DNA of 64,000 bases, taken from assembly GCF_003790525.1 (NCBI RefSeq), contig NZ_CP033635.1, one strand, 5' to 3'. Shown here piece by piece: positions 1-48,847 of the stretch. Source of the stretch: Escherichia coli (GTDB lineage: Bacteria > Pseudomonadota > Gammaproteobacteria > Enterobacterales > Enterobacteriaceae). The first letter of the stretch is position 1. Every line of letters begins with the position of its first letter. A program made the translations under genes and the position numbers. The notes under the pieces are model-generated. The model saw nothing but the letters and a program-made list of their open reading frames with translations, had not been told where the DNA came from and did not search any database.

Positions 1-473
1 TGGAAAAAGCATTGTTTGGCGACAACACCACCAAAGGGATGGATAAGTACGCTGACCAGCTTTATACCGATGTGGTCGATTTGCAAAAACGCATCAGTGA
101 ACTGGCTTTCCCACCTTCAAAAGTGGTCGGCGGTGCAGCCGGACTGATTGAGGAAGTGGCAGCCAGCAAAATCAGCGGTGAAGAAGATCGCTACAGCCAC
201 ACCGATCTGTGGGATTTCCAGGCTAACGTTGAAGGCTCGCAGAAAATTGTCGATCTGCTGCGTCCACAACTACAAAAAGCGAATCCGGAACTGCTGGCAA
301 AAGTCGATGCCAATTTCAAAAAGGTCGATACCATTCTGGCGAAATACCGTACTAAAGACGGTTTTGAAACCTACGACAAATTGACCGATGCTGACCGTAA
401 TGCGCTGAAAGGGCCGATTACTGCGCTGGCGGAAGATCTGGCGCAACTTCGCGGTGTGCTGGGGCTGGACTAA
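1..473 (+). CDS. efeO: EfeO iron uptake component, C-terminal part (5' end lies upstream of window)
   Basis: ORF runs from window edge to stop at 471-473; sits immediately upstream of the Tat-signal peroxidase efeB as in the efeUOB operon; identity from recollection of K-12 gene order. Confidence 0.8.
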
Positions 474-478
474 GCGTT

Positions 479-1750
479 ATGCAGTATGAAGATGAAAACG
501 GCGTGAATGAACCGTCACGCCGACGTTTACTGAAAGGGATTGGTGCGTTGGCGCTGGCGGGAAGTTGTCCGGTCGCTCATGCACAAAAAACGCAAAGTGC
601 ACCGGGCACGCTTTCACCGGATGCGCGCAGTGAAGCGCAGCCGTTTTATGGCGAACATCAGGCGGGTATTCTGACGCCGCAGCAGGCGGCAATGATGCTG
701 GTGGCGTTTGATGTGCTTGCCAGCGATAAAACCGATCTTGAACGGTTGTTTCGCTTGTTGACTCAGCGTTTTGCTTTTCTGACTCAGGGCGGAGCGGCAC
801 CAGAAACGCCAAATCCGCGCCTGCCACCACTCGATTCCGGCATTCTTGGCGGCTACATTGCGTCCGATAATCTCACCATAACGTTATCGGTGGGCCATTC
901 ATTGTTTGATGAGCGGTTTGGCCTTACACCGCAGATGCCGAAAAAGTTGCAGAAAATGACGCGTTTCCCCAACGACTCGCTGGATGCGGCGTTATGTCAT
1001 GGTGATGTGTTGCTACAAATTTGCGCCAACACCCAGGACACGGTGATCCATGCGCTGCGCGATATCATCAAACACACGCCGGATTTGCTCAGCGTGCGCT
1101 GGAAGCGGGAAGGGTTTATTTCCGATCACGCAGCGCGTAGTAAAGGCAAAGAGACGCCGATAAATTTGCTGGGTTTTAAAGACGGCACAGCCAATCCCGA
1201 TAGCCAGAATGCGAAGTTGATGCAAAAAGTGGTGTGGGTGACGGCAGATCAGCAGGAGCCTGCGTGGACAATCGGTGGCAGCTATCAGGCGGTGCGGTTG
1301 ATTCAGTTTCGGGTGGAGTTTTGGGACAGAACGCCACTGAAAGAACAGCAGACGATTTTTGGTCGCGACAAACAAACTGGTGCGCCGCTGGGCATGCAGC
1401 ACGAGCATGATGTTCCCGATTACGCCAGCGATCCGGAAGGGAAGGTGATCGCGCTGGACAGCCATATTCGGCTGGCGAATCCCCGCACGCCAGAGAGTGA
1501 GTCAAGTCTGATGCTGCGTCGTGGCTACAGTTATTCACTGGGCGTCACCAACTCCGGGCAACTCGATATGGGGCTACTGTTTGTCTGCTACCAACACGAT
1601 CTGGAAAAGGGCTTCCTGACAGTACAAAAAAGGTTGAATGGCGAGGCGCTGGAGGAATATGTCAAACCTATCGGTGGCGGCTATTTCTTTGCGCTGCCGG
1701 GTGTGAAGGACGCGAACGATTATCTCGGAAGCGCATTATTGCGGGTTTAA
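479..1750 (+). CDS. efeB: Dyp-type peroxidase / deferrochelatase EfeB with Tat signal
   Basis: 423-aa ORF; N-terminal twin-arginine motif [16 protein letters not shown]; Dyp peroxidase-like length; operon context. Confidence 0.93.
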
Positions 1751-1759
1751 TGTTTTTAG

Positions 1760-1900
1760 GCGTATAAGGCATTCGTGCGCAGATGCCTGATGCGACGCTT
1801 GCGCGTCTTATCATGCCTACAATCGGTGCGGGTTCGGTAGGCTGAATAAGGCGGTCACGCCGCATCCGGCGTTCGTGCGTTGATGCCTGATGCGAATCCT
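1760..1900. repeat. REP/BIME palindromic repeat cluster
   Basis: repeated gcctgatgcga...cttatca / cacgccgcatccggc motifs typical of enterobacterial REP elements in the efeB-phoH intergenic region. Confidence 0.7.
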
Positions 1901-1927
1901 GCTGAAAGCACACAGCTTTTTTCATCA

Positions 1928-1945
1928 CTGTCATCACTCTGTCAT
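1928..1945 (+). promoter_or_regulatory. Pho box (tandem PhoB half-sites CTGTCAT) of phoH promoter
   Basis: sequence ctgtcatcactctgtcat read directly, followed by AT-rich -10 region about 40 bp downstream. Confidence 0.7.
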
Positions 1946-2094
1946 CTTTCCAGTAGAAACTAATGTCACTGAAATGGTGTTTTATAGTTAAATATAAGTG
2001 AATATATTGTTGCAATGAATGCGAGATCTGTTGTACTTATTAAGTAGCAGCGGAAGTTCCCGGCAGTGATAGTCAGTCACTATGGAGATCGCGG

Positions 2095-3159
2095 ATGGTA
2101 ACGTCCTGTACTGGACATGTTTTAGATAATCAACGCGCCACCACTCGCGGAGTTTTCTCCTCCGGTAGTCATCTCGTCACTTTGCATTTTCAACCTCATC
2201 CTTTCTTTTCATGTGTTACCGACGCCGCAAACGGTGTGCGTAGCCGTTTTTCGGCATTTTATCCAAAAGCAAACTATGGCTTACAAGGAAGCCAACCCTC
2301 TGATGTTCGTGCGCATAATCGCGCTGCCAACGGCGCGTGTGATGAATACAAACAACTCAAGGTGCTCTCCATGGGAAGACAAAAAGCAGTGATCAAAGCT
2401 CGTCGCGAGGCAAAACGTGTGCTGAGACGGGATTCGCGCAGCCATAAGCAGCGTGAAGAAGAATCGGTCACCTCGCTTGTGCAGATGAGCGGCGTAGAAG
2501 CCATTGGTATGGCCCGCGACAGTCGCGATACTTCGCCCATCCTCGCGCGAAATGAAGCGCAATTGCACTATCTGAAGGCTATTGAGAGTAAGCAGCTGAT
2601 ATTCGCCACGGGCGAAGCCGGGTGCGGAAAAACCTGGATCAGCGCAGCAAAAGCGGCAGAGGCCCTGATACATAAGGATGTCGACAGGATTATCGTCACC
2701 CGTCCAGTTCTGCAAGCCGATGAAGATCTTGGCTTCTTACCTGGTGATATCGCAGAAAAGTTTGCTCCCTATTTTCGCCCGGTCTACGATGTGCTGGTTC
2801 GGCGCTTAGGGGCTTCCTTTATGCAGTACTGCCTGCGACCAGAAATAGGGAAGGTGGAAATTGCGCCGTTCGCCTATATGCGTGGACGTACCTTTGAAAA
2901 TGCAGTCGTCATTCTTGACGAGGCGCAGAATGTGACTGCCGCGCAAATGAAAATGTTTTTAACCCGCCTCGGGGAGAACGTGACGGTTATCGTCAACGGT
3001 GATATCACGCAATGCGATTTGCCTCGCGGCGTGCGCTCCGGATTAAGTGACGCGCTGGAACGTTTCGAAGAAGATGAAATGGTCGGGATCGTCCGATTCG
3101 GTAAAGAGGATTGCGTACGTTCAGCACTTTGCCAACGTACGCTACATGCATACAGTTAA
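2095..3159 (+). CDS. phoH: PhoH, phosphate-starvation-inducible ATPase (PhoH/PhoL family)
   Basis: 354-aa ORF with Walker A GEAGCGKT; internal in-frame start at 2372 (MGRQKAVIKA...) could give a shorter product. Confidence 0.9.
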   Translation: MVTSCTGHVLDNQRATTRGVFSSGSHLVTLHFQPHPFFSCVTDAANGVRSRFSAFYPKANYGLQGSQPSDVRAHNRAANGACDEYKQLKVLSMGRQKAVIKARREAKRVLRRDSRSHKQREEESVTSLVQMSGVEAIGMARDSRDTSPILARNEAQLHYLKAIESKQLIFATGEAGCGKTWISAAKAAEALIHKDVDRIIVTRPVLQADEDLGFLPGDIAEKFAPYFRPVYDVLVRRLGASFMQYCLRPEIGKVEIAPFAYMRGRTFENAVVILDEAQNVTAAQMKMFLTRLGENVTVIVNGDITQCDLPRGVRSGLSDALERFEEDEMVGIVRFGKEDCVRSALCQRTLHAYS

Positions 3160-3174
3160 GTGTATTATCGGCGC

Positions 3175-3205
3175 AGAGCCCGGGCGAACCGGGCTTTGTT
3201 TTATT
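3175..3205 (+). terminator. rho-independent terminator after phoH
   Basis: GC stem agcccgggcgaaccgggct followed by T-run ttgttttatttc. Confidence 0.6.
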
Positions 3206-3721
3206 TCATTAACAGCAAAGACTTTCACTTCAGGTTAACGTTCTGGGGGGCGACTTTGAGCGTGTTGATAAGCTGAAATTAATTCTGGTTTAGATGCTTT
3301 TACCAGGCATTTTTCGTCATAGCACGCGACCAATGTAATGCCTCCAGCGCGGAGAGTTTTTTGCCTATCTTTTTCCAGCCATTCAACCTGTACAGGAGGT
3401 CTGGTGCCAATTTTGCGTATGAGGTTTAATCAACAATGAGCCAAAATTTGACTGACTGATTAACACCAAATATATTCTCCTGATTTTATTTTTTAGGGAT
3501 AATATTAAAAATATAAGGTTAATCTTAATTAAATTTTTGGCTAATATTGTGTCTTGTTATTTTTTGTGGACGGCAAGCCGCAATGGCAAAATAGGTATGG
3601 TTGTAATAATCAAAACATGATACTAACTATATATAGATCGTTGAATTGTTGGCATGTAACTCGCTACAGCGAGTAGCGTTAGTAATGAAATATAATCAAC
3701 ATGGATAGGTGAAGATTAATT

Positions 3722-4408
3722 ATGAGCTTTATGGTTTTTGTAACTTGTTTGACAATTGCATTTGTCGCCGGTTTTGCTGTTGCCAGAAAATTGACACTCC
3801 GAAAAGTTGCCTCATCGGTAATCATCACTAAATCGCAACCAGTTCCTTCCTCTGCAACTTCCCCTGCTGTTAAGGCGTCGACAAGGAGCTATACACCGCA
3901 GAAAACCTATCGTGACTCTCGTTGGCAAGAACGAGATGAGTTGTTCCAGGGAATGGTTGCCGAAGGTATTTTATTGGAAGGAAAAGAGTGGTTAATTACG
4001 CGTTGTGAAAAAATCTATTTTGATAATCTGGAGAAATGGTTTGGACATTATTGTCATATCCATTGCCAGGTCTCTCTGGGGCGCTTGATCAACTTTCCAG
4101 AACAACCCGAGTTTAGCGAAGAAGAAAGAAAGCGTTTCTTTGCAATTTATAATGGAATGGCAATGGATTATGTTCTGGTTTCAAAGAAGAACAATAAAAT
4201 AGTCTGTGTTATTGAGCTGGATGATCCGAGTCATGAAAGGGCAGATCGCATTATTCGTGACCGTTGGTTGAATACGATTATGACTATTGCACGGGTGCCT
4301 TTTGTACGAGCTTCTGTCACTAAATTGGATGAAATCCCTCCGGTCTGGGATACCCGTGACAAAATGCGCCCATTAGCCGCGGCGACAAAGGGTGAACCGT
4401 TGCATTAA
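3722..4408 (+). CDS. hypothetical membrane-anchored protein; N-terminal TM helix, Ser/Pro/Thr-rich linker, Cys/His cluster, DUF2726-like (PD-(D/E)xK-fold-like) C-terminal module; not present at this position in K-12
   Basis: 228-aa ORF preceded by very AT-rich leader; hydrophobic N-terminus MSFMVFVTCLTIAFVAGFAVA; motif MDYVLVSKKNNKIVCVIELDDPSHERADRIIRDRWL resembles the DUF2726 core; about 40% GC on hand count of first 120 nt. Confidence 0.6.
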   Translation: MSFMVFVTCLTIAFVAGFAVARKLTLRKVASSVIITKSQPVPSSATSPAVKASTRSYTPQKTYRDSRWQERDELFQGMVAEGILLEGKEWLITRCEKIYFDNLEKWFGHYCHIHCQVSLGRLINFPEQPEFSEEERKRFFAIYNGMAMDYVLVSKKNNKIVCVIELDDPSHERADRIIRDRWLNTIMTIARVPFVRASVTKLDEIPPVWDTRDKMRPLAAATKGEPLH

Positions 4409-4499
4409 CTAAGTACCCCGATCGGGGCTTCTCATCCCCCCGGTGTGTGCAATATACGAAAAAAAAGCCCGTACTTTCGTACGAGCTCTTCTTTAAAGA

Positions 4500-4587
4500 T
4501 GGCGGTGAGGGGGGGATTCGAACCCCCGATACGTTGCCGTATACACACTTTCCAGGCGTGCTCCTTCAGCCACTCGGACACCTCACC
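4500..4587 (-). tRNA. serX: tRNA-Ser (anticodon GGA), serX-like
   Basis: reverse complement reads GGTGAGGTGTCCGAGTGGCTGAAGGAGCACGCCTGGAAAGTG...GGTTCGAATCCCCCCCTCACCGCCA with long variable arm and CCA end; A-run on + strand 4462-4469 gives terminator on - strand. Confidence 0.9.
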
Positions 4588-4781
4588 AAATTGTTGTTCC
4601 TGTCTTGCTGGAACGGGCGCTAATTTAGGGAAATCATGACCTGAGGTCAACAAACTTTTTTAAAAAATCGCGCGTTTATTCAAACTTCAATCAATATGCA
4701 GTTTTAATAAGCGAAATTTGCTTTTTTTGCCACCGACCACGGATTTGTTATGCTGGTGGCTTTTGTAGATCATAACGATAA

Positions 4782-5759
<978 letters not shown>

Positions 5760-5813
5760 TAAAGCATCAGGTTTCCTGCTATCCTTGGCGGGAATTGAAT
5801 ACAGGAGAGAGTT

Positions 5814-6551
5814 ATGTATCCCGTCGACCTTCATATGCATACCGTTGCCAGCACGCATGCATATAGCACATTGAGTGATTACATTGCCCAGGCCAAACAA
5901 AAGGGCATTAAACTTTTTGCAATCACCGATCATGGCCCGGATATGGAAGATGCGCCGCATCACTGGCACTTCATTAACATGCGTATCTGGCCGCGAGTGG
6001 TTGATGGAGTAGGGATCCTGCGCGGCATCGAAGCTAACATTAAAAATGTTGATGGTGAAATTGATTGCAGCGGCAAAATGTTTGATTCGCTGGATCTGAT
6101 TATTGCCGGTTTTCATGAGCCGGTTTTTGCGCCGCATGATAAAGCGACCAATACACAAGCGATGATCGCCACTATTGCCAGCGGCAATGTGCATATAATA
6201 AGCCATCCCGGAAATCCGAAATATGAAATAGATGTTAAAGCCGTTGCTGAAGCAGCCGCGAAACATCAGGTGGCGCTGGAAATCAATAATTCCTCTTTTT
6301 TACACTCACGTAAGGGAAGTGAAGACAATTGTCGTGCGGTAGCCGCAGCGGTACGTGACGCTGGAGGTTGGGTGGCATTAGGCTCGGATTCTCACACCGC
6401 GTTTACCATGGGTGAATTTGAAGAGTGTCTTAAAATCCTCGACGCGGTAGATTTTCCGCCAGAGCGCATTTTGAATGTTTCTCCGCGCCGCTTACTGAAC
6501 TTCCTTGAATCTCGCGGTATGGCACCGATTGCGGAATTTGCAGACCTTTAA
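5814..6551 (+). CDS. ycdX: PHP-family zinc phosphatase YcdX
   Basis: 245-aa ORF, N-terminal DLHMHT PHP motif. Confidence 0.9.
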
Positions 6552-6574
6552 TTACTAGTAATGGAAATATATTA

Positions 6575-7129
6575 ATGAACGAGTTTTCTATCCTCTGTCG
6601 TGTGCTGGGTTCGCTCTATTACCGCCAACCACAAGATCCTTTACTGGTGCCGCTGTTTACCCTGATTCGTGAGGGGAAACTGGCTGCGAACTGGCCACTG
6701 GAGCAGGATGAGTTGCTGACACGTTTGCAGAAAAGCTGTGATATGACGCAAGTCTCTGCCGATTACAATGCGTTGTTTATCGGCGATGAATGTGCTGTGC
6801 CGCCATATCGTAGCGCATGGGTTGAGGGCGCGACGGAAGCGGAAGTGCGCGCTTTTCTTTCCGAACGGGGGATGCCATTAGCGGATACGCCAGCCGATCA
6901 CATCGGCACATTGCTGCTCGCGGCTTCCTGGCTGGAAGATCAGTCAACGGAAGATGAGAGCGAAGCACTGGAAACACTGTTCAGTGAGTATCTGTTACCC
7001 TGGTGTGGTGCGTTCCTTGGTAAAGTGGAGGCCCATGCAACTACGCCTTTTTGGCGCACCATGGCACCGCTAACCCGCGATGCTATTAGTGCAATGTGGG
7101 AAGAGCTGGAAGAAGATCCTGAAGAGTAA
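6575..7129 (+). CDS. ycdY: TorD-family chaperone YcdY
   Basis: 184-aa ORF directly downstream of ycdX. Confidence 0.88.
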   Translation: MNEFSILCRVLGSLYYRQPQDPLLVPLFTLIREGKLAANWPLEQDELLTRLQKSCDMTQVSADYNALFIGDECAVPPYRSAWVEGATEAEVRAFLSERGMPLADTPADHIGTLLLAASWLEDQSTEDESEALETLFSEYLLPWCGAFLGKVEAHATTPFWRTMAPLTRDAISAMWEELEEDPEE

Positions 7130-7230
7130 ATGTGATCTGCATCACTCATAACTGCAACAGATAATTTGTTGTTGCATAAAATGTGTGCTCGATCTCATTC
7201 ATGGCCGCGTTTTCTGCTATCATGCGCGGC

Positions 7231-7722
7231 ATGAACATACTTCTCTCTATTGCAATCACAACAGGTATTCTCTCCGGTATCTGGGGATGGGTGGCTGTTT
7301 CCCTGGGCTTACTAAGCTGGGCGGGCTTCCTGGGCTGTACGGCCTACTTTGCCTGCCCGCAAGGTGGGCTGAAAGGGCTGGCGATCTCCGCTGCAACCCT
7401 GCTTAGTGGCGTGGTGTGGGCGATGGTCATTATTTACGGTAGTGCACTGGCACCACATCTGGAAATTCTCGGTTATGTCATAACCGGTATTGTCGCGTTT
7501 CTGATGTGTATTCAGGCGAAACAGCTGCTGCTTTCATTTGTTCCGGGGACGTTTATAGGCGCATGCGCGACGTTTGCCGGGCAGGGTGACTGGAAACTGG
7601 TGTTACCTTCGCTGGCGCTTGGGCTGATATTTGGTTACGCAATGAAAAACAGCGGCCTGTGGCTGGCGGCGCGTAGTGCAAAGACGGCGCACCGTGAGCA
7701 GGAAATCAAAAATAAAGCGTGA
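7231..7722 (+). CDS. ycdZ: inner membrane protein YcdZ (DUF1097)
   Basis: hydrophobic 163-aa product starting MNILLSIAITTG; track ORF extends 16 codons upstream. Confidence 0.85.
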   Translation: MNILLSIAITTGILSGIWGWVAVSLGLLSWAGFLGCTAYFACPQGGLKGLAISAATLLSGVVWAMVIIYGSALAPHLEILGYVITGIVAFLMCIQAKQLLLSFVPGTFIGACATFAGQGDWKLVLPSLALGLIFGYAMKNSGLWLAARSAKTAHREQEIKNKA

Positions 7723-7785
7723 GGGGCACTCACGCTTTCGCTTAAACCGTAAAATGCCGGATGATAATTCCGGCTTTTTTATCTG

Positions 7786-8619
7786 TCAGGATTCCGGTGG
7801 AACCGACATATGGCGGTATTTCACCAGAATGTCGTTCTGCCGTTCTGCTTTGTTCTGCAAATCCCACAGACCACGGTCAATACCATCATTAATCAGGAAA
7901 ATGACCCCTGTTTCGATAGCCGACATCAGGCACAGCATAACGGGTTCGTTCGAGGTGTAACCCACTTCCCCTTCCAGCAAGCGCTGGTAGTCAATAAAGC
8001 GGAAAACCCCGGCCTGAACTTCATAGGAAAGTATCGTCTTACTGGTGTTCACCGAGGAGAGAATCTCACCGGTACTCACATTGACGACACGCAGGTTCAC
8101 GGCAATCTGATCAAGCTGGTATTGCGTGTCGGCACCGATCCCAAAATATCTTGCCCCAACACCGCCCGATTTAACGTTGCTTTCGTAACCGATAATCGAA
8201 CCTTCAACCATGATATTTGCCGCCGTTAAAGACTGCAGCGGGATTCGGTTATTAATGGCAACCGTACCGTTTTCTTGTGCCGCACGAATAATCTTGCGCT
8301 CGTTAAGCAGGTTTTGTAAGCCCTGGCGCTCCAGCGGTATAAACCAGCGAGAATCTTTCAATGCCGTGACCAGCATTGCCGTGGCGCTTTGCGGAACAGC
8401 AGTGGAGAAGTTACTTGCCGGGTAAGGTTTAAATTGCCCGGTTTCGTCCTGAATGTTGTATACCGAAACAAAGATCTTACCCGTCGGCGCTGGCAGATGG
8501 GTCAAATCTTTGTAGCTCTGAGCACGAGGCATTAATGTCGGTCTGGCTGCTTCTTTAGGCGGGGCGGTTAAGCATCCGCTCAGTAACATGACGGCAACCA
8601 AAAGAAATAAGCGCTGCAT
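7786..8619 (-). CDS. csgG: curli secretion channel lipoprotein CsgG
   Basis: 277-aa ORF, lipoprotein signal LLSGCLTAPPK; csgDEFG operon context. Confidence 0.93.
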   Translation of the reverse strand: MQRLFLLVAVMLLSGCLTAPPKEAARPTLMPRAQSYKDLTHLPAPTGKIFVSVYNIQDETGQFKPYPASNFSTAVPQSATAMLVTALKDSRWFIPLERQGLQNLLNERKIIRAAQENGTVAINNRIPLQSLTAANIMVEGSIIGYESNVKSGGVGARYFGIGADTQYQLDQIAVNLRVVNVSTGEILSSVNTSKTILSYEVQAGVFRFIDYQRLLEGEVGYTSNEPVMLCLMSAIETGVIFLINDGIDRGLWDLQNKAERQNDILVKYRHMSVPPES

Positions 8620-8645
8620 GATTATTTTCCTTATGAAGCTGGGGC

Positions 8646-9062
8646 TTAAAAATCGGTTGAGTTATTTTGTAAACCCGAAACCTGGATGGTCGAGGTTTGT
8701 CCGGTTTTACGATCTGTCACGTTCAACTGCAATTGACCATCGCGGTTAGCAATATCAACAATATAATCGTTGGTCACCATGCGGCCCGGTTTACCGGTAT
8801 TAATATTCGACAGTAGCCCACCTAAAATTTGTGACTGGATGGCCTGAGTAAAGTTATCTAACGCTGAGGGTGTTTCAATACCAAAGTCATCGTTATAGCT
8901 CGGATCTTTATACGAGTTTTGGGCCTGGGCGCTATTTAATAAAAAAGCGCCATTATTTGGGTTACCACCAAAGTTTGGGTTACGGAACTGAAAAGTCATT
9001 GTTCCAGCCCAACTTAATGGCGAAATAAGCATGAGTAGAACTACTGCATGTTTGACACGCAT
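8646..9062 (-). CDS. csgF: curli assembly protein CsgF
   Basis: 138-aa ORF with signal peptide, between csgE and csgG. Confidence 0.93.
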
Positions 9063-9086
9063 TGCAGCCTCCGAACAATTTTTTAT

Positions 9087-9476
9087 TTAGAATTCATCAT
9101 GCGCCAAATCGCCCGTACTTAATAACGCCTGATTTATCTGGCGACGATTTAGTGCTTCTTCAGTTTGAATCAGTGCAAAGACGACAGTTTTTTCGAAGTC
9201 TCTTTTCAACGGGAATAAAAAAGTCTGGAAAATAACGTCCTGATTGACCGTTATAGTGATCCAGCTTCCCCATCGTGCACTGGGCCTTTCATTAATCGTT
9301 AAGTTACCCGTATAGTCACTTTCCCATTTATCACTAAAGGCTCGGTAAAAATCATGGCCAATAGATGAAACAGTATGGTCAGTTAACAATCCCGGGACTT
9401 CTACCTCAACGGCGTGAAGATTCCCTGCGGCGAACAGAAATTCTGCCGCCACAATCCAGCGTAAATAACGTTTCAT
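9087..9476 (-). CDS. csgE: curli secretion specificity factor CsgE
   Basis: 129-aa ORF with signal peptide. Confidence 0.93.
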
Positions 9477-9480
9477 GGCT

Positions 9481-10131
<651 letters not shown>

Positions 10132-10885
10132 GATGAAACCCCGCTTTTTTTATTGATCGCACACCTGACAGCTGCCTCTAAAATAGAAGCACCAGAAGTA
10201 CTGACAGATGTTGCACTGCTGTGTGTAGTAATAAATCAGCCCTAAATGGGTAAAATATAAAACTAATGGATTACATCTGATTTCAATCTAGCCATTACAA
10301 ATCTTAAATCAAGTGTTAAACATGTAACTAAATGTAACTCGTTATATTGAAATGTTAATCTTAAGGTTTTATTAAGTTTAGAAATGATAGAAAAGTTGTA
10401 CATTTAGTTTTTATTGCACAATTTTAAAAAATCATACAAATGGTGCTAACTTGCTAATAATGCATATAAAAAATATTTCGGTGTAGTCCTTTCGTCATGT
10501 AAAACGTTCTTGTTTTTTCTCTACACCTCCTTGGACAATTTTTTACTGCAAAAAGACGAGGTTTGTCACGGCTTGTGCGCAAGACATATCGCAGCAATCA
10601 GCGACGGGCAAGAAGAATGGCTGTCTGGTGATTTTTGATTGCGAAAAACGGAGATTTAAAAGAAAACAAAATATTTTTTTGCGTAGATAACAGCGTATTT
10701 ACGTGGGTTTTAATACTTTGGTATGAACAAAAAAAGAAAAATACAACGCGCGGGTGAGTTATTAAAAATATTTCCGCAGACATACTTTCCATCGTAACGC
10801 AGCGTTAACAAAATACAGGTTGCGTTAACAACCAAGTTGAAATGATTTAATTTCTTAAATGTACGACCAGGTCCAGGGTGACAAC
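10132..10885. promoter_or_regulatory. csgD-csgB divergent intergenic regulatory region (csgDEFG and csgBAC promoters, long csgD 5' UTR)
   Basis: about 750 bp non-coding, strongly AT-rich with A/T tracts, between divergently transcribed csgD and csgB. Confidence 0.8.
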
Positions 10886-11341
10886 ATGAAAAACAAATTG
10901 TTATTTATGATGTTAACAATACTGGGTGCGCCTGGGATTGCAGCCGCAGCAGGTTATGATTTAGCTAATTCAGAATATAACTTCGCGGTAAATGAATTGA
11001 GTAAGTCTTCATTTAATCAGGCAGCCATAATTGGTCAAGCTGGGACTAATAATAGTGCTCAGTTACGGCAGGGAGGCTCAAAACTTTTGGCGGTTGTTGC
11101 GCAAGAAGGTAGTAGCAACCGGGCAAAGATTGACCAGACAGGAGATTATAACCTTGCATATATTGATCAGGCGGGCAATGCCAACGATGCCAGTATTTCG
11201 CAAGGTGCTTATGGTAATACTGCGATGATTATCCAGAAAGGTTCTGGTAATAAAGCAAATATTACACAGTATGGTACTCAAAAAACGGCAATTGTAGTGC
11301 AGAGACAGTCGCAAATGGCTATTCGCGTGACACAACGTTAA
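10886..11341 (+). CDS. csgB: minor curlin subunit / nucleator CsgB
   Basis: 151-aa product from MKNKLLFMMLTILGAPGIAAA; Q/N/G-rich repeats. Confidence 0.93.
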   Translation: MKNKLLFMMLTILGAPGIAAAAGYDLANSEYNFAVNELSKSSFNQAAIIGQAGTNNSAQLRQGGSKLLAVVAQEGSSNRAKIDQTGDYNLAYIDQAGNANDASISQGAYGNTAMIIQKGSGNKANITQYGTQKTAIVVQRQSQMAIRVTQR

Positions 11342-11381
11342 TTTCCATTCGACTTTTAAATCAATCCGATGGGGGTTTTAC

Positions 11382-11837
11382 ATGAAACTTTTAAAAGTAG
11401 CAGCAATTGCAGCAATCGTATTCTCTGGTAGCGCTCTGGCAGGTGTTGTTCCTCAGTACGGCGGCGGCGGTAACCACGGTGGTGGCGGTAATAATAGCGG
11501 CCCAAATTCAGAGCTGAACATTTACCAGTACGGTGGCGGTAACTCTGCACTTGCTCTGCAAGCTGACGCCCGTAACTCTGATCTGACCATTACCCAGCAC
11601 GGCGGCGGTAACGGCGCAGATGTTGGCCAAGGTTCTGATGACAGCTCAATCGATCTGACTCAGCGTGGTTTCGGCAACAGCGCTACTCTTGATCAGTGGA
11701 ATGGTAAAGATTCTACTATGACTGTTAAACAGTTCGGTGGCGGTAACGGTGCTGCTGTTGACCAGACTGCATCTAACTCCAGCGTTAACGTCACTCAGGT
11801 TGGCTTTGGTAACAACGCGACCGCTCATCAGTACTAA
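11382..11837 (+). CDS. csgA: major curlin subunit CsgA
   Basis: 151-aa ORF; signal peptide; repeated S-x5-Q-x-G-x-G-N-x-A-x3-Q amyloid repeats. Confidence 0.95.
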   Translation: MKLLKVAAIAAIVFSGSALAGVVPQYGGGGNHGGGGNNSGPNSELNIYQYGGGNSALALQADARNSDLTITQHGGGNGADVGQGSDDSSIDLTQRGFGNSATLDQWNGKDSTMTVKQFGGGNGAAVDQTASNSSVNVTQVGFGNNATAHQY

Positions 11838-11856
11838 TACACATCTGTATTAAAGA

Positions 11857-11883
11857 AACAGGGCGCAAGCCCTGTTTTTTTTC
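11857..11883 (+). terminator. rho-independent terminator after csgA
   Basis: hairpin acagggcgcaagccctgt followed by T8. Confidence 0.7.
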
Positions 11884-11894
11884 GGGAGAAGAAT

Positions 11895-12659
<765 letters not shown>

Positions 12660-12753
12660 GTTTCTGAACAACTCACCTTGCTGAGCAGAAAAATGCGATT
12701 TAACCAAAAAGCCTGCTGTACACTTAAGAAACAAGAAGGTGTAAGGAGGCGTT

Positions 12754-13287
12754 ATGAAAACGCGTATTCATGTTGTGCAGGGTGATATTACCAAACTGGC
12801 CGTTGATGTGATTGTGAATGCGGCTAATCCGTCATTAATGGGAGGCGGCGGCGTCGATGGGGCCATTCATCGCGCAGCGGGTCCGGCGCTGCTGGATGCC
12901 TGTTTAAAAGTCAGGCAACAGCAGGGCGATTGCCCTACGGGGCATGCCGTTATTACGCTTGCAGGCGATCTTCCCGCTAAAGCCGTAGTGCACACCGTCG
13001 GGCCAGTCTGGCGTGGTGGTGAACAAAACGAAGACCAGCTTTTGCAGGATGCCTATCTCAATAGCCTACGACTGGTGGCGGCAAACAGCTATACGTCAGT
13101 GGCTTTTCCTGCAATTAGTACTGGGGTTTATGGTTACCCTCGTGCGGCAGCGGCTGAAATCGCAGTAAAAACCGTTTCAGAATTTATTACCCGTCACGCT
13201 TTACCCGAACAGGTATACTTTGTCTGTTATGATGAAGAAAACGCCCACCTCTACGAAAGACTCCTTACTCAACAAGGAGATGAATGA
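12754..13287 (+). CDS. ymdB: macro-domain O-acetyl-ADP-ribose deacetylase YmdB
   Basis: 177-aa ORF; macro domain motifs [19 protein letters not shown]. Confidence 0.92.
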
Positions 13288-14710
13288 TTTGCCCCGGCTG
13301 GCGAGCGCGGTGCTGCCACTGTGTTCGCAACATCCCGGTCAGTGTGGCCTTTTTCCTCTGGAGAAAAGTCTGGATGCGTTTGCCGCCCGGTATCGTCTGG
13401 CCGAAATGGCAGAGCATACGCTGGATGTTCAGTATTACATCTGGCAGGACGATATGTCGGGTCGGTTACTGTTTTCCGCCCTGTTAGCCGCAGCAAAGCG
13501 TGGCGTTCGCGTCCGTTTGTTGCTGGACGACAACAATACGCCCGGACTTGACGACATTTTACGCTTGCTTGACAGTCATCCACGCATTGAAGTCCGGCTT
13601 TTTAATCCTTTCTCGTTTCGCTTGCTACGTCCGCTTGGTTATATCACCGACTTTTCCCGTCTCAATCGCCGTATGCACAATAAAAGTTTCACTGTCGATG
13701 GCGTGGTTACCCTGGTGGGAGGACGAAATATTGGTGATGCCTATTTTGGGGCAGGGGAAGAGCCACTTTTTTCGGATTTAGATGTCATGGCAATAGGACC
13801 GGTGGTAGAGGACGTTGCCGATGATTTCGCCCGCTACTGGTATTGCAAATCGGTTTCACCCTTACAGCAGGTGCTGGATGTCACGGAAGGTGAAATGGCG
13901 GATCGCATCGAGTTACCCGCCTCCTGGCATAACGATGCCATGACGCATCGTTATTTACGCAAAATGGAATCCAGTCCGTTTATAAATCATCTGGTTGATG
14001 GAACGTTGCCGCTTATCTGGGCGAAGACACGTTTATTAAGTGATGATCCGGCGAAAGGGGAGGGCAAGGCAAAACGGCATTCACTGTTACCGCAGCGCCT
14101 GTTCGATATCATGGGCTCACCCAGTGAACGCATCGATATTATCTCTTCCTATTTTGTACCGACACGCGCAGGTGTGGCGCAACTCTTACGTATGGTGAGA
14201 AAAGGGGTAAAGATTGCGATCCTAACCAATTCTCTTGCCGCTAACGATGTTGCTGTCGTCCATGCCGGATACGCACGCTGGCGCAAAAAATTGCTCCGCT
14301 ACGGCGTGGAATTATATGAACTCAAGCCGACGCGTGAACAAAGTAGTACGTTACACGATCGCGGCATCACCGGTAATTCCGGTGCCAGCCTGCATGCTAA
14401 AACCTTTAGCATCGATGGTAAAACGGTGTTTATCGGCTCTTTCAATTTCGATCCGCGTTCGACATTGCTCAATACTGAAATGGGCTTCGTGATAGAGAGC
14501 GAAACGCTGGCACAGTTAATTGATAAACGCTTTATTCAGAGCCAGTATGATGCGGCCTGGCAGCTCCGTCTGGACAGGTGGGGACGGATCAACTGGGTTG
14601 ATCGTCATGCAAAGAAAGAGATTGTTCTCAAAAAAGAACCCGCCACCAGTTTCTGGAAGCGGGTTATGGTCAGACTGGCGTCGATATTGCCCGTGGAATG
14701 GTTATTATAA
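13280..14710 (+). CDS. clsC: cardiolipin synthase C (phospholipase D family)
   Basis: ORF overlapping ymdB stop; two HxK(x4)D motifs (HNKSFTVDG and HAKTFSIDG); start ambiguous between ATG 13280 and TTG 13289. Confidence 0.88.
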
Positions 14711-14717
14711 GCATGGC

Positions 14718-15875
14718 TTAACGGGCTGGTGCTTTATCGTTCTCACGCTTAACAACCGGTTTACCAGAGAACAAAAACTTCAGTAACGGGATGCGTAAAT
14801 GAATTTCATACAGAATTATCGCAATCCCTACTACGAATATCAGGCCACAGAGAAAACCAAGCCAGTTGGAGGTGATGTGCGGTGTAATGTACGCGCCGAA
14901 AAACAGCGTTAACGGGTGGTGAACCAGATAGATAAACAGCGATGCATTAACAAAGTAAGTCACCCGCGCTGACTGGAAGTTAAGCAAACGGTGGCCGAAG
15001 GAGAAGACCACATTCACCATCCACAGACCGAGGACCATGGTGATCACAGACTCGGTTTCGTACATCCAGGCATCGCCACTGCCATAGCGCTGGTTGAGTA
15101 AGTAAGCGACAAATGCCAATGCTGCTGCAAGGGTACAGCCACGAGACGGCGTGGTAAACAAGGCTTTAAGATGAGGGAAAATGAAAGCCAGTGCGCCGAG
15201 GATAAAGAACGGCAAATAAAATAGCGTTTGCATGACAATAAAATTGAACATGCCGTTACTCAGAATGGGCGGATACACAATAAAAATCGTTCTTCTTATT
15301 ACCGCATAACCGATGCCGAGGCACAAAAAAATCACCGATAGTTTTACCATCGAGAATTTTTTATTCGTTTTATCAGAATTTTCTAAATTATTTCTGATGC
15401 GTTTAAATATCCATACGCACAGCGTCGTCATGACTACTAACACCAGTAAAAACCACAGGTGTGATATTAATTCCCAGGCCAACGTATTATATTTGTCATA
15501 CAATGACAGTCCAGGCCAACTTTCCGCTTTCCCTTTGACGTATTGCAGCATAATAAATTGCGGCAATGTCAGTAGGGGGATGGCTGTTAACATCGGGATC
15601 CCTACACGTTTGACACGTACTTTCCACCATTTTTTCAAGGGATAGCGTAAAAAAAGCATGTAGGAAAAGTACCCGGATATAACGAAAAATACCTGCATGC
15701 GGAACGAGTGGATGAAGTCATTAAAAAGGGTCAGCCATAATGACGGTTCGGCGCTATTCACATGCCATGTATGGCTCGAATAGATTAAAGAAATATGAAA
15801 AGGGATCCCTAACAACATCAGCCAGGCGCGGATGGAGTCGAGGAAATATTCACGTTGCGCGGGTACTGGGTTCAT
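14718..15875 (-). CDS. opgC: osmoregulated periplasmic glucan succinyltransferase OpgC (acyltransferase-3 membrane protein)
   Basis: 385-aa polytopic membrane ORF, divergent from opgGH. Confidence 0.9.
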
Positions 15876-47886: not shown

Positions 47887-47980
47887 TTTCGCTTTAAAAC
47901 ATATCATGAAACTGGGTATGTTTTGTCTGCCTGCTCTGGGATCGCCGGGGCGGGCATTTTTTTGCATGAGACATAACGAA

Positions 47981-48764
<784 letters not shown>

Positions 48765-48847
48765 AAATATATCCTTCGGCTTTGCGTGGATGATAATTAT
48801 ACAGCACATGTAACGCTAATGTCATTACAGCAAAGATGCTACCCCTG

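Follow-up and report, generated by a model that had tools for sequence, protein, structure and literature searches.

Escherichia coli K-12 MG1655 carries an 11.4-kb block (pgaDCBA-dgcT-IS3-ymdE-ycdU) between the core gene phoH and the tRNA gene serX, with the order phoH-pgaD-pgaC-pgaB-pgaA-dgcT(ycdT)-IS3D-ymdE-ycdU-serX-ghrA. The whole block is missing from the phoH-serX interval of another E. coli strain, of which we analyzed a 64-kb stretch (the window; all positions refer to it). In its place there is a single AT-rich gene. A preliminary description of the window proposed that this gene belongs to an islet that integrated at the 3' end of serX and replaced the pga genes. Is the short arrangement an insertion, a deletion, or the original state of the locus?

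Content and boundaries of the interval

The flanks on both sides are core sequence. Positions 2600-5200 of the window are 100% identical to E. coli SMS-3-5 and to about 20 further complete genomes. RefSeq annotates the locus of SMS-3-5 as efeU-efeO-efeB-phoH, a "DUF2726 domain-containing protein", tRNA-Ser, and ghrA-ycdX-ycdY-ycdZ-csgGFED, which agrees with the colinear flanks (efeB-phoH on the left and serX-ghrA on the right) of the preliminary description. The K-12 gene content that it gave for phoH-serX also matches the MG1655 annotation. On the left, phoH lies at 2371-3159 on the plus strand (this is the RefSeq start from the SMS-3-5 record; the program-made open reading frame begins at 2095). 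It is followed by an intrinsic terminator at 3173-3202, also on the plus strand, which was found by a terminator scan (hairpin at 3173-3199; fold dG -21.2, z -3.73). By BLAST, the phoH side is 98.6% identical to K-12 up to position 3202. On the right, serX encodes tRNA-Ser(GGA) (ARAGORN and the Rfam tRNA model) at 4500-4587 on the minus strand, with its 3' end towards the interval, as had been noted. Farther right is ghrA (4821-5759, plus strand; RefSeq annotation), which is 98.3% identical to its K-12 counterpart.

We located both junctions by comparison with other haplotypes. Homology to K-12 covers 2001-3202 and resumes at 4415; between these, 3203-4414 has no match to the K-12 block and contains no pga or dgcT sequence (BLAST against positions 3101-13961 of the K-12 locus). 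Strain RS571, whose order is phoH-pgaDCBA-dgcT-serX without ycdU, gives the same boundary on the left (3202|3203), and its homology resumes at 4418, so the right end falls at 4414 or 4417 depending on the comparison strain (K-12 or RS571). The left junction directly follows the T-run of the phoH terminator: all of the haplotypes align through GGGCTTTGTTTT and diverge after it. At the right junction, CCCCG(G/A)TCGGGGCTTCTCATCCCCCCGG... is common to all of the haplotypes, as is the sequence from there to the tRNA. BLAST against K-12 and RS571, the population search, and the outgroups (see below) together define a haplotype-specific segment of 1,212 bp, at 3203-4414.

This segment is shorter than the variable interval that was originally delimited (3206-4499). 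Only the part up to 4414 is haplotype-specific. Positions 4415-4499 (minus strand) are a conserved serX trailer, identified by BLAST and alignment, which is present in K-12 as well; since all of the haplotypes share it, it is not part of the variable DNA. The trailer includes a T-arm-like sequence at 4421-4441. The intrinsic terminator of serX is also here, on the minus strand at 4459-4494, and consists of a hairpin plus U-run (dG -20.4 kcal/mol, z -5.85). The trailer further includes, at 4416-4427, the perfect palindrome CCCCGATCGGGG, just where the preliminary description had placed it. The palindrome and the nearby hairpin and A-run had been taken as marks of the right-hand junction, but they are conserved trailer sequence and the serX terminator. 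The palindrome site reads CCCCGGTCGGGG in all other copies of the DUF2726 haplotype and in the serX-proximal copy of K-12. The palindrome is a one-base variant of the conserved trailer whose perfect form is particular to the allele in the window. We also considered the palindrome as a structural signal, but its fold is no better than those of shuffled sequences (z -1.46).

The segment's sole substantial open reading frame is the one that had been reported, with 228 amino acids (3722-4408, plus strand). We will refer to it as the DUF2726 gene. Upstream of it is an AT-rich region (3420-3721, plus strand; 29.9% GC) with promoter-like sites at 3448-3476 and 3583-3610, which were found by a promoter scan and may function as promoters. 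Farther upstream, translation of the minus strand reveals 64 codons of open frame that contain no ATG (3235-3430). We considered this as a second gene and rejected it: it has no start codon, a Pfam search of it found no match, and the O26, cryptic-clade, and E. albertii copies contain stop codons within it. Also, the window's allele has a 27-bp deletion in this frame relative to the other alleles. We regard it as a probable remnant of a pseudogene or as non-coding sequence.

The base composition of the segment is unusual. As described, the first 120 nt of the DUF2726 open reading frame are 40.0% GC (43.1% for the whole frame), and 3420-3720 is far more AT-rich than the flanking core (29.9% GC vs. 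50.6% for the entire window). The interval 3206-4499 is 40.6% GC. The GC content at third codon positions (GC3) is 39% for the DUF2726 gene vs. 54-64% for the flanking genes. At 40% GC as compared to 50.6%, the segment has the atypical composition that is expected of a genomic island. Across the 64 kb, only about 2% of windows of 1,212 bp are below 40% GC, and these either overlap 3203-4414 or lie within the core csgD-csgB region, which has lower GC still. The K-12 block is AT-rich too (44.8% GC, with dgcT at 38.6%). So both of the alternatives at this locus look foreign by composition, and low GC cannot tell us which of them came first. Taken by themselves, the low GC and GC3 of the DUF2726 segment are the typical look of a foreign gene and count against its being ancestral.

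Alternative states among E. coli genomes

Variation at this locus has been published before. Goldstone et al. 2016 described pgaABCD-ycdT-insEF-ymdE-ycdU as a "region of genomic heterogeneity" that is missing from 10-20% of genomes of phylogroup A, with core flanks efeB/phoH and ghrA/ycdXYZ (PMC4951805). Cimdins et al. 2017 reported strains that lack ycdT, pga, and the insertion sequence between phoH and csgG but retain serX and ghrA (PMC5635171). The window shows this very presence/absence polymorphism, at the locus that both papers describe. The passages of these papers that treat the locus do not state what occupies the interval in such strains or which state is ancestral; both are given here. 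Since the polymorphism was already published and the DUF2726 gene was already annotated by RefSeq, our results are a clarification rather than a discovery. Our contribution is to identify the occupant, to set the direction of change, to map the junctions exactly, and to give frequencies.

To tabulate what other strains carry, we searched 5,426 complete E. coli genomes for each state of the locus. (A match required at least 80% coverage of the query; for pgaC, any match was counted.) The DUF2726 segment was found in 1,043 genomes (1,043-1,051), or about 19%. The phoH-pgaD junction was found in 4,373 genomes, and ymdE-ycdU in 2,603. There are three main haplotypes: the DUF2726 segment (~19%), pga-dgcT (~33%), and pga-dgcT-(IS3)-ymdE-ycdU (~48%). 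The first two of these counts sum to 5,416 of the 5,426 genomes (1,043 + 4,373), so the DUF2726 segment and the pga block are effectively alternative states, and they look mutually exclusive. Furthermore, pga is missing entirely from strains in the DUF2726 state: pgaC had some match in 4,382 genomes and none in the other 1,044. These counts and the K-12 alignment bear out the core of the preliminary description, which is that the locus is variable and that pga-ycdT-ycdU is absent from the window, with a single AT-rich gene there instead.

The DUF2726 state occurs in unrelated lineages, including SMS-3-5, O26:H11, O111:H8, and others, with allele identities of 93%-100%. The flanks do not sort with it. 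In the left flank, K-12 (pga) is nearest to O26 (DUF2726), while in the right flank, RS571 (pga) is nearest to the window (DUF2726), with 99.1% identity. By this comparison, the haplotype is independent of the lineage of its flanks. As the similarity of the flanks does not follow the haplotype, the two alleles may have been swapped through homologous recombination within the conserved flanks, or they may have been sorted from an old polymorphism.

In practical terms, roughly a fifth of the complete E. coli genomes (among them SMS-3-5 and strains of O26:H11 and O111:H8) have neither the genes for the PGA biofilm polysaccharide nor the gene for the cyclase DgcT.

Ancestry and direction of change

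The preliminary description had the DUF2726 gene replacing pga. The outgroups reverse this. We compared one genome each from E. albertii, a cryptic Escherichia clade, and Salmonella enterica. The window and the type strain of E. albertii are colinear across efeO-efeB-phoH-DUF2726-serX-ghrA, at ~87% identity (alignments cover 1-4518 and 4415-8999); the sole difference is that E. albertii has two extra ~181-bp units of the RtT type between the DUF2726 gene and serX. In the genome from the cryptic Escherichia clade, phoH and the DUF2726 gene are adjacent as well (92% identity). In Salmonella enterica, the order is putA-putP-phoH-DUF2726-(rve-family gene)-serX-ghrA-ycdX-ycdY-ycdZ-csgG, and the protein is 73% identical to that of the window over its full length (219-aa form) or 83% identical over the 151-aa form at the syntenic locus. 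The Salmonella synteny implies that the DUF2726 gene has been at this site since before the split of Escherichia and Salmonella.

Synonymous divergence gives the same picture. Between the window and E. albertii, dS is 0.40 for the DUF2726 gene, which is similar to the 0.33 for phoH. Together with the synteny of the outgroups, this core-like dS implies vertical inheritance since before E. coli and E. albertii separated. (We also considered that the DUF2726 gene might have been transferred recently from E. albertii, and rejected this because the synonymous divergence is core-like.) In each of the six taxa compared, the reading frame runs for 228 codons, uninterrupted by gaps or stops. The dN/dS ratio ranges from 0.14 to 0.35, which indicates that the gene is constrained. 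The DUF2726 gene is intact and under purifying selection.

We are therefore confident, if not certain, that phoH-DUF2726-serX-ghrA is the ancestral arrangement, which has been kept by the strain in the window and by ~19% of E. coli, and that the pga block is derived. We propose that the DUF2726 gene was displaced by an AT-rich, foreign pga-dgcT block, which was inserted between the phoH terminator and the serX trailer or RtT repeats. This would have given rise to the derived majority state, which is pgaABCD-dgcT with or without IS3-ymdE-ycdU. Our proposal implies that the absence of pga and dgcT is the original state of the locus and not a loss, which corrects a reading centered on K-12. This should be useful for interpreting the presence or absence of pga and dgcT in pangenome or biofilm studies, although it has little significance beyond that. 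The preliminary description had named, as grounds for abandoning the islet, a single-gene arrangement that is the common ancestral state across Escherichia and has a host-like composition. The arrangement does seem to be ancestral, but its composition is not host-like, and within E. coli it is the minority state (19%).

How the block would have entered is suggested by what lies downstream of serX. K-12, A25, O26, and E. albertii have tandem units of ~181 bp there, and each unit opens with a copy of the tRNA's last 19 nt. These units resemble the RtT repeats of the tyrT operon (Rfam RF00391): K-12 has two matches to RtT at the gathering score, and RefSeq annotates the units of O26 and A25 as RtT sRNA. 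The window differs in having no such unit and just the single native trailer; the RtT covariance model has no match in 3000-4900, even at E up to 1. In RS571, dgcT directly abuts the last ~20 nt of a repeat unit, which suggests that pga may have entered illegitimately, in an ancestor where such repeats were already present. Also, neither junction shows site-specific integration. On the phoH side of the pga haplotypes (K-12 and RS571), we found no att-like repeat; the left junction of RS571 lacks a copy of the serX 3' end; and the extra copies of the serX 3' end in K-12 are all within the RtT array beside serX. As the junctions have no site-specific signature, we infer that pga entered by illegitimate recombination.

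The DUF2726 gene itself might be the remnant of a very old mobile element that was acquired beside serX before the Escherichia/Salmonella split and was inherited vertically thereafter. Its GC and GC3 are still low. Relatives with 37-57% identity have a fixed place in conjugative elements, where TraG_N precedes them and an integrase follows, and further relatives are found inside type VI secretion clusters or beside vgrG. A family of phage proteins, PHROG 14167, also gives a weak match, an rve-family gene sits between the DUF2726 gene and serX in Salmonella, and the upstream frame at 3235-3430 could be a decayed remnant. However, no mobility gene or repeat survives in Escherichia, and AT-richness alone is no proof, as the core csgD-csgB region is more AT-rich. 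We consider this origin to be possible but doubtful. It concerns an earlier event than the ancestral arrangement that we propose, and the two are compatible rather than opposed.

As for the islet of the preliminary description, that is, a strain-specific, site-specific integration at the 3' end of serX in place of a K-12-type pga block, it is easy to see why it was suggested. The tRNA's 3' end faces the interval, the segment is AT-rich, and serX is a documented site of island integration: examples are PAI-CFT073-serX and the SRL island, which has 14-bp direct repeats (PMC7545054). E. coli O26:H11 also has an integrase-bearing island at serX. These islands and the window's segment have in common the tRNA gene and the side of it that faces variable DNA. 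But the islands have a tyrosine integrase, the last 14 nt of serX repeated at their boundary, and an insertion point within the 3' end of the tRNA, and the segment has none of these. There is no integrase gene in 3203-4414, where the sole substantial open reading frame is the DUF2726 gene, which has no integrase domain. The 19-nt 3' end of serX occurs just once in the 64-kb window, even with up to 3 mismatches allowed, so the direct repeat that the preliminary description had proposed to look for at the left junction is absent; nor did we find any relevant direct repeats in 3000-4800. The right junction is outside of the tRNA, as the sequence is again homologous to K-12 and RS571 from 4415-4418 on, 82-85 bp past the tRNA's end. 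In O26:H11, the DUF2726 gene and the repeats come first, and the island lies to the right of both. Its tyrosine integrase gene starts ~160 bp past a copy of the trailer, and this copy ends in the last 14 nt of serX, which are equivalent to 4500-4513 of the window. True islands at serX would thus enter to the right of the segment, outside of the interval that was originally flagged, and in the window this attachment site is empty. Finally, an island should be absent from the same site in relatives, but the DUF2726 gene follows phoH in E. albertii, in the cryptic Escherichia clade, and in Salmonella enterica, and its synonymous divergence from E. albertii is like that of core genes. A tRNA-targeted islet is therefore very improbable, and the locus illustrates that a variable segment beside a tRNA need not be a tRNA-integrated island.

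Least probable of all is a secondary deletion from an ancestor that had both pga-dgcT and the DUF2726 gene, with some lineages losing one and some the other: Goldstone et al. do report that the pga region is prone to attrition (PMC4951805), and insertion sequences are common there, but with 1,043 + 4,373 = 5,416 of 5,426 genomes accounted for there is no room for a class with both, pgaD directly abuts the phoH terminator and dgcT directly abuts the RtT remnant, and in the outgroups phoH and the DUF2726 gene are separated by just 350-560 bp, in which there is no remnant of pga.

The DUF2726 protein

The protein matches Pfam's DUF2726 (PF10881, from the PD-(D/E)XK clan) at residues 90-205 (E = 2.8e-18; model positions 3-116 of 126). 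An AlphaFold2 model of it has a mean pLDDT of 77, with most of the core at 84 or above. In the model, a transmembrane helix at the N terminus (residues 3-26) is followed by a disordered linker (27-56) and an alpha/beta domain. The model suggests that this domain (about residues 94-215) has a Vsr-like PD-(D/E)XK fold, with the alpha/beta core that is expected of restriction-endonuclease-like proteins. Across 17 homologues, with identities as low as 37%, residues E96, Q116, E165, D168, H171, R176, R179, and D180 are invariant and D149 is nearly so. These include acidic and histidine residues that could form an active site (E165, D168, H171, and the near-invariant D149). Every homologue has a cluster of positively-charged residues just after the helix. 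By the positive-inside rule, these charges place the nuclease-like domain in the cytoplasm, so we predict that the protein is anchored in the inner membrane with its domain on the cytoplasmic side. With low confidence, we suggest that it may be a membrane-tethered endonuclease that cuts nucleic acid at the inner membrane, possibly incoming DNA.

Unlike the Vsr/DUF559/I-Bth0305I branch, the DUF2726 protein has a membrane anchor and a linker at its N terminus. It also differs in that it has no sequence-level match to solved structures (a sequence search against these gave chance-level matches only). A scan of the protein against NCBIfam gave no family, and the anti-phage defense models of PADLOC gave no match at E up to 1. 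Among the PHROGs, the only match was the weak one to PHROG 14167, whose entry lists no function.

Close orthologues of the protein are exclusively chromosomal. We considered a plasmid origin, but the only close matches on plasmids are to records of 0.7-4.9 Mb, which we read as mislabeled chromosomes. A phage origin was also rejected, as the matches in phages are to distant Vibrio elements (~35% identity).

The more distant relatives have a different setting. They have a fixed place after TraG_N in conjugative elements from E. coli, Dickeya, and Pectobacterium. In a type VI secretion cluster, another relative is flanked by tssA and tssF, and its protein family occurs in Enterobacter, Pantoea, Klebsiella, and Citrobacter. 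And in Erwinia, a relative adjoins vgrG. We speculate that the DUF2726 family could be an unrecognized accessory of transfer machines that span the envelope, perhaps a membrane-tethered nuclease that acts on DNA as it enters or leaves the cell, and that the copy between phoH and serX could be a domesticated member which was lost from most E. coli as pga was gained. This is a long shot, but the presence of relatives in conjugative elements and type VI clusters is a modest lead as to what the DUF2726 protein does.

Repeats and insertions beside serX

Downstream of serX, which encodes tRNA-Ser(GGA), are tandem units of about 181 bp, and the 19-nt 3' end of the tRNA is repeated at the start of every unit. 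By score or by annotation, these units are RtT RNA (the repeat RNA of the tyrT operon, RF00391). They lie at 13962–14565 of the K-12 locus (L001), at 15311–15685 of the E. coli O26:H11 11368 locus (L003), and at 15298–15661 and about 6800–7145 of two other comparison loci (L004 and L008, respectively). Their copy number varies: the window has none; A25, O26, and E. albertii have two each; and K-12 has two full units along with partial copies. The serX trailer contains a T-arm-like sequence in inverted orientation, shortly downstream of the tRNA gene: positions 4421–4441 of the window are 86% complementary to 4510–4530, which is the T-arm region of the gene.

In E. coli O26:H11 11368, an island with an integrase is inserted at serX (L003 15846–29225), with the DUF2726 gene and the RtT units both on its left. 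The island starts after a copy of the trailer whose end matches the last 14 nt of serX. Among its genes are one with a "TOTE conflict system" primase domain and one of the YfjI family, and it also contains IS elements. In Salmonella enterica (L014 and L015, about 6490–7760), an rve-family gene of 418 amino acids (with HTH_28, rve, and rve_3 domains) has the DUF2726 gene on one side and serX on the other. This gene is absent from the Escherichia copies of the locus.

The phoH side of the locus

On the minus strand at 3235–3430 of the window is an open frame of 64 codons that lacks an ATG but looks protein-like when translated. A Pfam search with this frame gave no match. The copies from O26, the cryptic clade, and E. 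albertii are interrupted by stop codons, and the window's allele has a 27-bp deletion within this region. The frame is probably the remnant of a decayed gene.

Opposite the 3' end of phoH, there is a 192-bit match to Rfam Ysr251 ("Yersinia sRNA 251", antisense; 2961–3154, minus strand). K-12 gives the same match. A conserved phoH coding sequence may be all that lies behind it.

Relatives of the DUF2726 protein in other systems

Membrane-anchored relatives of the DUF2726 protein occupy conserved positions within other systems (L016 and L017, 7001–7645; L013, 6001–6612; L019, 7001–7606; L022–L024, 7001–7660; L021, 7001–7636). In conjugative elements their place is after TraG_N, in a type VI secretion cluster it is between tssA and tssF, and elsewhere it is immediately upstream of vgrG. 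None of the relatives at these conjugative, type VI secretion, and vgrG loci has a functional annotation.

A toxin-antitoxin pair between flgL and rne

Elsewhere in the window, the flgL–rne interval contains an 880-bp insertion (47966–48845) relative to K-12, whose interval is just 63 bp. The insertion encodes a GNAT-family toxin (47981–48490, minus strand) and, upstream of it, a DUF1778/TacA-like antitoxin. It is found in 686 of 5,426 complete E. coli genomes, and nearly all of the copies are at least 99% identical.
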